Part shown: positions 172 through 1,713 of the stretch, one piece after another
How the letters are laid out: every line of letters starts with the position of its first letter
Position numbering within the stretch: the first letter of the stretch is position 1
Source: a virus
Taxonomy: Duplodnaviria > Heunggongvirae > Uroviricota > Caudoviricetes
Virus record (IMG/VR): IMGVR_UViG_2526164690_000049
Direction: 5' to 3' (one strand)
Length of the DNA: 10,763 nucleotides
Position numbers and translations under genes: made by a program
The notes under the pieces: generated by a model
What the model saw: the letters and a program-made list of their open reading frames with translations, nothing else
Databases searched by the model: none
Told to the model about the DNA's origin: nothing

Positions 172-506
172 TTTTCCGCGCCCTCACGACAAAGAATTTC
201 AAGGCGTGTCCTGGCGGCATCCGGCAGCGGTTGCCCGATGATATTCAGTACACGCCCCGCCAGCGGCCCCGTATTGACCTTTATCCGGCTGGTGGCGTTG
301 ATGTCCTTCCTGTAGCGTATCCATATCCTTACCGTTCCAGTCGCCAGTTCTGCACCCGATGAAATGGCCTCCTTGCTGCTGATCATGTTCACGCTTGCCC
401 AGAGTGTGTGACCGTCCACCCACGTTTCGAGTATTTCGCCGGTTATATCCCTGGTCTGTTTCAGGGTCTGAATCGTTACCCTGTCACGCAGTCGCCCTAT
501 GTTCAT
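168..506 (-). CDS. Phage head closure / head-tail adaptor protein (SPP1 gp16-like family), 112 aa
   Basis: ORF 168-548 trimmed to ATG 506-504, which overlaps the TGA (505-503) that ends the portal's alternative-frame C-terminus. Motifs GRLRDRVTIQ, TW..LWASV, RIWIRYRKDI, LEILCRE fit the head-closure family pattern as I remember it. AGGGAG lies about 10 nt upstream. Confidence 0.75.
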   Translation of the reverse strand: MNIGRLRDRVTIQTLKQTRDITGEILETWVDGHTLWASVNMISSKEAISSGAELATGTVRIWIRYRKDINATSRIKVNTGPLAGRVLNIIGQPLPDAARTRLEILCREGAEK

Positions 507-531
507 TCCGGTTTTTCTCCCTCGCTGATTT

Positions 532-1713
532 TTACTTCCTGTTTCCATGCCTGGCTGAACTCATCACCACCATCACGCGGGGACAGCCCTTCACGTTCGC
601 GGGCTTCGTTCGGGCACATAACGCCGGATTTGATGCCGCGTTCATAGGTGGCAAAGCGTTCGCCAGGTGTGGCCCGTAACAGGTCCGCGCTGTCAAACTC
701 CACCTGATACCGGATACCAGGTACAGGTGAGGCCACCAGCAGGGCGTTTTTATCTGCTGTTCAAAGTTCGCCAGCCACGGGCGCATCGTCATGGTGAGAA
801 ATGCGCGGCTTGCCTCGCTGAAATTGCTGTAGGTGCTGTTGCTGTATTCCTGCAGAAAAATCGGCGAGACGTTGAACATTCGGGCGATGTCTTCAATGGT
901 GAAGCGACGGGAGGCCAGCCATTCAGCATCCTGATTACTCATGCCCAGCTGCTGATAGCTCATACCCCCTTCAAGGATGGGCGTTTTTCCGGCGTTTCTG
1001 GCCCCTTTGTAGCGTTCCAGTGCGGCTAATGCCTGTTTGCCCTTCACGCCGTCCAGCCATTCGCCTGACGTGATAACCCCTGCCGCCATCATGCCATCAC
1101 GCATCACGCTCGCGCCGTGGCGTTGTTGGGCCAGCCCAAGCCCCAGCGATTCGCGGCAGATGGTTACAGGTGAGCGCCCCATAAAACCGTCATCCGTGGA
1201 GTAACGAAGGTGGAGAACCTCCCACGGTAAATAGTTGCGGGTGTTTCCGGTGTAGGCGTCAGTGATGCAGTAGCGCCAGTTATGCTCACCTGTCTGCTCA
1301 ACGTTCACCGACTGCGGCGGGTAAGGATGTAAAGCCACCGGAAAACCATCACGCCCCCACTGAATCACCGCATAAGCATTACCGTTTAACAGGCAGTGGC
1401 GGATCATCATTCGCTTAAACTGGTAGGGGGTTTGCCATGCGTTCGGGCGCTCGTTGAGGATGTGATCGACCGGATGAGAATCAAGCCACTCTCGGGCCTC
1501 CTTCCCCTTCTCATTGCGTACCAGGTACAGGTAACACGGCATGGTAGCCACCGCCTCAGAGATGACCGTGACGGCGTTCATGACGGCGGGCAGTGATTCC
1601 GCTGTCCCCGATGATACGTACTCACCCGCCCCCGTGTTCGATGTGCCAGCCAGCGCCATAAACTCATCAAGCGTCATGCTGCGCTGCTCTTTTTTTCTTC
1701 TGAAAGGCCACAT
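532..1713 (-). CDS. Phage portal protein, HK97 family; reading frame breaks near 745-753 and the authentic C-terminus continues in the frame of ORF 503-736
   Basis: 393-aa ORF with portal-like core (LLNGNAYAVIQW, TMRPWLANFEQQI). After EQQI the frame gives an implausible Cys/Trp/Pro-rich tail, while the -1 frame reads NALLVASPVPGIRYQVEFDSADLLR...NEAREREGLSPRDGGDEF and ends at 503 in ATGA overlap with the next gene. Start ATG 1713-1711 lies 1 nt after the protease stop, with GGGGGTG upstream. Confidence 0.8.
   Translation of the reverse strand: MWPFRRKKEQRSMTLDEFMALAGTSNTGAGEYVSSGTAESLPAVMNAVTVISEAVATMPCYLYLVRNEKGKEAREWLDSHPVDHILNERPNAWQTPYQFKRMMIRHCLLNGNAYAVIQWGRDGFPVALHPYPPQSVNVEQTGEHNWRYCITDAYTGNTRNYLPWEVLHLRYSTDDGFMGRSPVTICRESLGLGLAQQRHGASVMRDGMMAAGVITSGEWLDGVKGKQALAALERYKGARNAGKTPILEGGMSYQQLGMSNQDAEWLASRRFTIEDIARMFNVSPIFLQEYSNSTYSNFSEASRAFLTMTMRPWLANFEQQIKTPCWWPHLYLVSGIRWSLTARTCYGPHLANALPPMNAASNPALCARTKPANVKGCPRVMVVMSSARHGNRK

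Follow-up and report, generated by a model that had tools for sequence, protein, structure and literature searches.

The window, by which we mean the whole stretch of 10,763 nucleotides analyzed, corresponds to bases 1-10763 of the draft contig AIGH01000042.1 of Escherichia coli DEC8C (GCA_000249835.2). The element that it carries is a capsid-forming PICI (cf-PICI) of the EcCIEDL933 type, inserted in tqsA. The core genes of a PICI are present, namely an integrase, an HTH regulator (recognized by the annotation of the PV15-279 island introduced below), and a primase, and the element probably has a packaging module of its own, from which capsid, protease, broken portal, and head closure genes lie inside the window (Table 1). 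SSB and PerC-family genes are also found, and a head-tail connector gene is represented by its start only (window 1-171), being cut by the contig end. Over its whole length, the window is 99.89% identical to a tqsA-inserted island of the O157:H7 strain PV15-279 (L001), which continues with HNH, small terminase, and large terminase genes and contains no tail genes. The HNH, TerS, and TerL genes of the DEC8C island would lie beyond the contig end; they are present in this close relative. In RefSeq, tqsA, which encodes an AI-2 transporter, appears as two pseudogene fragments flanking the island (L001 4998-5159 and 20005-20352; L010 8907-9782). A 308-aa ORF on the minus strand (8005-8931), called as a gene in the DEC8C GenBank entry, overlaps a YlcI/YnfO-family gene on the plus strand (8183-8488); part of the same strand of 8005-8931 is listed as an "incomplete" hypothetical pseudogene in a RefSeq relative, and the 308-aa ORF is probably a spurious call.

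Table 1. Genes and features of the window, in window coordinates.
Feature	Position	Strand	Description
Head closure gene	168-506	-	112 aa; TIGR01563 gp16_SPP1, E = 8.8e-16
Portal 3' part, -1 frame	503-748	-	Asn323 to Glu403 plus TGA
Out-of-frame tail of the frame 0 product	532-747	-	71 codons, Cys/Trp/Pro-rich, then TAA
Homopolymer at the frame break	747-751	-	A5 on the coding strand, T5 on the plus strand; relatives A6
Portal 5' part, frame 0	748-1713	-	Codons 1-322, Met1 to Lys322
HK97-family prohead protease	1715-2287	-	TIGR01543, E = 4.1e-53; L001 annotation; directly upstream of portal
HK97-type major capsid protein	2327-3484	-	TIGR01554, E = 7e-88; L001 annotation
P4-type primase	5349-7181		
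Small HTH regulator	8984-9172		62 aa; annotated in L001; no NCBIfam match
Second private contraction	9540-9545	.	A6 on the plus strand (T6 on the integrase strand); relatives 7; intergenic, directly after the integrase stop
Tyrosine integrase	9546-10763	-	405 aa

Judged from its published description and from the PV15-279 island, the prototype cf-PICI EcCIEDL933 of E. coli O157:H7 has the same gene set and order as the window: integrase, AlpA-like regulator, P4-type primase, HK97-type capsid, prohead protease, portal, and head closure/connector (10.1101/2022.09.08.507074). The window differs from the prototype in that its portal ORF is split by one missing A and in that it stops inside the head-tail connector gene. 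Single mutations in the packaging-module genes of EcCIEDL933 each abolished transfer, except for that in gene 1792; they left replication intact and were not rescued by the homologues that the helper phage itself carries (10.1101/2022.09.08.507074). Experiments have shown, for EcCIEDL933 only, that a helper phage induces the island and that it moves in small capsids of its own making that bear phage tails (10.1101/2022.09.08.507074).

The frame in which the portal gene begins (frame 0; window 532-1713, minus strand) encodes a product of 393 aa, as given by the ORF list and its translation. On the minus strand, the region of window 480-820 contains the codons ...CGC CCG TGG CTG GCG AAC TTT GAA CAG CAG ATA AAA ACG CCC TGC TGG TGG..., and bases 746-753 of the plus strand read ATAAAAAC, as quoted in the original prediction, which held that the gene is split by a -1 frame change at a homopolymer. 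The sequence agrees, with a run of five A residues (A5) at this point. After ...RPWLANFEQQIK, frame 0 continues as TPCWWPHLYLVSGIRW...RHGNRK and terminates at TAA (534-532); this 71-residue tail has the richness in Cys, Trp, and Pro that had been described. The frame had been called the annotated one, a term that does not apply to a window without annotation, although what had been said about its content is correct. After a stop at 763-761, the -1 frame stays open from position 760 down to the TGA at 505-503. Read from the AAC codon (748-746), which shares base 748 with the Lys322 codon in the restored reading, it starts with NALLVASPVPGIRYQVEFDSADLLR (in the longer quote, NALLVASPVPGIRYQVEFDSADLLRATPGERF) and ends with GGDEFSQAWKQEVKISEGEKPE. 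Because only 13 bases separate the -1 frame stop from the first divergent codon, the frame change is confined to them, and the A-run is the sole repeat that they contain. The expected ATGA overlap with the head closure gene is likewise found, the TGA of the -1 frame overlapping the ATG at 506-503, and the annotation of the PV15-279 island carries the same 4-nt overlap. The start of the portal gene is ambiguous within 1677-1713 (minus strand): RefSeq uses Met1 (403 aa, ATG at 1713, one base past the protease stop), and gene calls on Logan contigs use Met13 at 1677 (391 aa).

A protein of 403 aa results when codons 1-322 (748-1713) are continued in the -1 frame (503-748). One additional A had been proposed to restore an intact portal of about 404 aa; the restoration holds and the length is slightly off. 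The joined protein is identical at 403 of 403 positions to WP_000267608.1, the annotated portal of E. coli O157:H7 PV15-279, its 5' part showing 100% identity to residues 1-322 of that protein. The frame 0 product covers positions 1-274 of the 321 positions in the Pfam model Phage_portal (PF04860), and the join covers 1-321 (304.8 bits), positions 275-321 being restored by the -1 frame segment. The join also matches TIGR01537 (portal_HK97) at model positions 5-343 of 343 with 244.2 bits (cut-off 112). The restored protein thus resembles HK97-family portals in matching both family models end to end; the gene as written differs from them in being split over two frames instead of forming one uninterrupted ORF, and encodes only the first 322 residues correctly. 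Alignment of the two-frame translation to HK97-type portals of solved structure, which had been suggested as a check, is gap-free through the junction for both 9lbn (E = 2.9e-39) and 8cez (E = 3.8e-31); it spans residues 25-386, including the C-terminal residues 323-386, and ends at 384-386.

The same picture is provided by sequence homologues. Nearly all of the 120 best homologues listed are 400-412 aa long and are aligned with 98-100% coverage of the join, and the 18 homologues that were aligned in full, from Escherichia to Pasteurellaceae, are single ORFs that run straight across the junction and share the pattern EQQ(I/L)K-x-(A/S)L(L/M)...(Y/H)xxEFDxxDLLR...NE(A/V)R...GG(D/E)E(F/Y)SQAW(K/Q)Q. 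The -1 frame segment is therefore conserved across genera, and its match is far beyond chance, given the 403/403 identity and the extension of Pfam coverage from 1-274 to 1-321. It is the true portal C-terminus. The segment contains no further lesion, and neither the portal gene nor its neighbours show secondary decay. Two outcomes had been named beforehand as arguing against a broken portal, intact homologues that end at the frame 0 stop and a -1 frame unlike portal C-termini: the former does not occur, and the latter is contradicted by a strongly portal-like segment. The opposite reading, in which the 393-aa product is a genuine portal variant with a different C-terminus, could appeal to the long uninterrupted ORF of frame 0 and to its GenBank annotation as a portal protein (EHW17565.1). 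However, the last 71 residues of this product show no similarity to any C-terminus in the alignment of 18 homologues, Pfam positions 275-321 are lost, and it is the -1 frame, overlapping this tail, that shows 100% identity with the conserved C-terminus, which effectively refutes a real variant and leaves it a negligible probability.

In the relatives, the run is one base longer. The 80-nt junction stretch with A5 has no exact match in any of the 336 complete E. coli genomes that contain this stretch, and the best matches listed each span 81 bases; similarly, a 1351-nt probe matched 534 genomes, and the best matches listed span 1352 bases. PV15-279 shows a one-base gap relative to the window at the run, with A6 both there and in the related sequences L005-L009, so that the comparison of orthologous islands, another recommended check, recovers the one extra A in every close relative compared. 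Among more remote homologues, the Lys is followed by N, A, S, or D, which indicates that the A-run as such is not conserved. As many as five copies of the portal region are present in related E. coli genomes. Phase variation of the A-run was considered and ruled out, because all 336 of the complete genomes have A6 and the run is short.

A second way to keep both frames in use would be -1 slippage of the ribosome at tRNA-Lys on A AAA A, either programmed or at least tolerated; the A5 allele would then yield both full-length portal and the 393-aa form. The local sequence is compatible with such an event: the Lys codon AAA (750-748) can pair again without mismatch when shifted back by one base (751-749), the wild-type AAC then follows in the -1 frame, and the -1 frame stop only four codons upstream would confine any shift to the A-run. 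An A-rich run for tRNA-Lys slippage that leads into a productive -1 frame is also seen in dnaX (A AAA AAG) and at the G/GT site of phage tail chaperones. The portal gene differs from these systems in that the split is not conserved, a slippery heptamer and a significant stimulator are lacking, and the ancestral state is a single ORF. The two-frame layout is found in 0/336 genomes, the listed homologues are nearly all of full length, 18/18 aligned homologues read through the junction, and the variable residue after the Lys speaks against a maintained slip site. There is no tandem X XXY YYZ arrangement, as the neighbouring codons ATA and ACG cannot re-pair and only the Lys codon can, and the downstream RNA (660-775) shows no significant fold, with z = -1.34 and an equally good fold in 20 of 200 shuffles. 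In E. coli, transcriptional slippage to any appreciable extent needs a run longer than five A residues. We therefore rejected programmed or tolerated frameshifting on the grounds that the split is not conserved, that no tandem slippery site exists, and that the fold is not significant. This is consistent with the original prediction, which had considered slippage on AAA possible and less likely; we regard it as very improbable, and even when combined with the variant C-terminus it retains a marginal share of the probability.

The true protein is the 403-aa two-frame join, and nothing about the break is programmed. The locus is an ordinary HK97-type portal gene of an EcCIEDL933-type cf-PICI, and one A of ATA AAA AAC is missing from it in the DEC8C draft. 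For the cause of this loss, a sequencing error and a genuine inactivating mutation had been put forward as the most likely candidates, and our results support this pair. We favor an under-called homopolymer in the draft assembly, with a probability of roughly 0.5. The position of the break, the restored gene, and the absence of A5 from every complete genome checked are read directly from the sequences, and from the pattern of changes in the draft we infer a miscall rather than a mutation as the source of the missing base; strain DEC8C probably has an intact portal gene.

This pattern emerged when five to eight relatives were compared with the DEC8C contig over 20.7 kb. Only three changes are private to DEC8C: the portal contraction from A6 to A5, a contraction from 7 to 6 after the integrase, and one substitution (window 8118). 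For the second contraction, 0/574 complete genomes match its 84-nt stretch exactly. The substitution falls inside the 308-aa ORF at 8005-8931. For a draft that was deposited in about 2012, two contracted homopolymers and a single substitution look like miscalls; errors of flow-based sequencing typically show such a 2:1 excess of homopolymer indels over substitutions, and draft genomes of the DEC8C type were probably 454-based. The break has the properties of an artefact, namely a homopolymer site, no occurrence in the complete genomes checked, and a similar indel elsewhere in the assembly. As with known homopolymer errors of draft assemblies, a run of 6 has contracted by one base and a run of 7 on the same contig has done so too. 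The portal run is moreover visibly prone to miscalls, because the Logan sequence of DRR489587 (L003) has A8 at this point together with three other homopolymer indels in 7.2 kb (sites L003 2551-2560, 2795, 4154, and 5669), with TerL split into 398 + 133 aa. DRR489587 looks like a noisy read set rather than biology.

What a purely random error does not predict is the recurrence of A5 in a second read set, SRR124123 (L004). This recurrence favors the alternative of a real, recent, strain-specific one-base deletion, arising by replication slippage in the A6 run and inactivating the portal. According to this alternative, the island could excise and replicate while being unable to assemble capsids, and would be a defective satellite unless the portal protein came in trans from another copy of the island. 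The Logan contig of SRR124123 is 3.2 kb long, carries A5, and differs from the window at 19 of 3135 positions. Only one of these differences (668) lies in the portal region, and 18 more are located in the capsid, protease, and head closure regions, where many alleles are those of the DRR489587 island. At position 668, the window has T on the plus strand against A in L001, L004-L007, and L009, and L008 shares the state of the window. The change is synonymous in the true portal frame and gives His versus Leu in the frame 0 tail, which is why the SRR124123 product forms a separate protein entry. No complete genome matches the SRR124123 contig above 99.5%, and the best matches listed span one extra base. 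Since the DEC8C-private changes are intergenic or homopolymeric, they offer no strain-private protein for comparison with SRR124123.

The origin of this contig determines what it can add. It ends 29 nt past the DEC8C contig end (L004 3135-3164), and such near-coincident ends suggest a shared repeat boundary and hence more than one related island per genome. Because the ends nearly coincide and related genomes carry up to five copies, it is plausible that the SRR124123 contig is a second island copy. An assembly mosaic of two island copies was also considered and seems unlikely, because the contig follows the window alleles throughout the portal gene and the alleles of another island elsewhere. 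The occurrence of A5 in this second sequence context counts against an artefact, as independent support for a real deletion, unless the same strain or platform is involved. If SRR124123 comes from another strain or from Illumina sequencing, the deletion is real; if the source is DEC8C or a sister strain and the platform was the same, the contig may represent a second island copy and gives no independent support.

Further observations bear on both sides. Against an artefact, no miscall and no indel error is seen in the 10-kb chromosomal flank of the DEC8C contig, which includes 11 homopolymers of at least 6 bases, and for an assembly with good coverage two consensus errors within 20.7 kb would be many. 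A null portal would have a clear phenotype, as expected from the single mutants of EcCIEDL933 (10.1101/2022.09.08.507074), and the loss of one portal copy could be tolerated in genomes of the kind that hold up to five. Against a real deletion stand the absence of the A5 allele from all 336 complete genomes and its restriction, in a collection of 15 billion proteins, to DEC8C and one old run, the third cluster member being the A8 variant of DRR489587. In a large collection, the exact 393-aa product (EHW17565.1) was found on one contig only, that of DEC8C itself. The other private indel of DEC8C is also a homopolymer contraction, which suggests a technical signature, and the intact state of the portal segment and its neighbours likewise speaks for a miscall. 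We consider the real deletion a serious contender, at somewhat below an even chance. A variant of it, in which A5 is real and the island remains transmissible at low frequency through occasional tRNA-Lys -1 slippage or through the portal of a second cf-PICI copy, appears highly improbable. Both of the causes favored at the outset stand, as close rivals.

Taken together, the gene and the type of element that carries it are both familiar, whether the homopolymer was under-called or the deletion is real. The one-base disruption is trivial and limited to the DEC8C draft and a single further read set, and the case is ordinary either way, as a miscall or as a recent knock-out. The C-terminus of EHW17565.1 (393 aa) is false, and this entry is best regarded as the product of a frameshifted portal gene or of an assembly error. 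More generally, one-base homopolymer breaks in old drafts should be compared with complete genomes before recoding is proposed. Beyond such annotation hygiene, the importance of the finding is slight. The part missing from the frame 0 product comprises the last 81 residues of the portal, including its most conserved C-terminal motifs, and these residues are presumably needed for a working portal ring. Should the deletion be real, it would be a natural knock-out of a gene that is needed for transfer of the prototype island, of interest as a strain-level note only: the DEC8C cf-PICI would be expected to replicate and to form no capsids and undergo no transfer, unless another copy supplies the portal.
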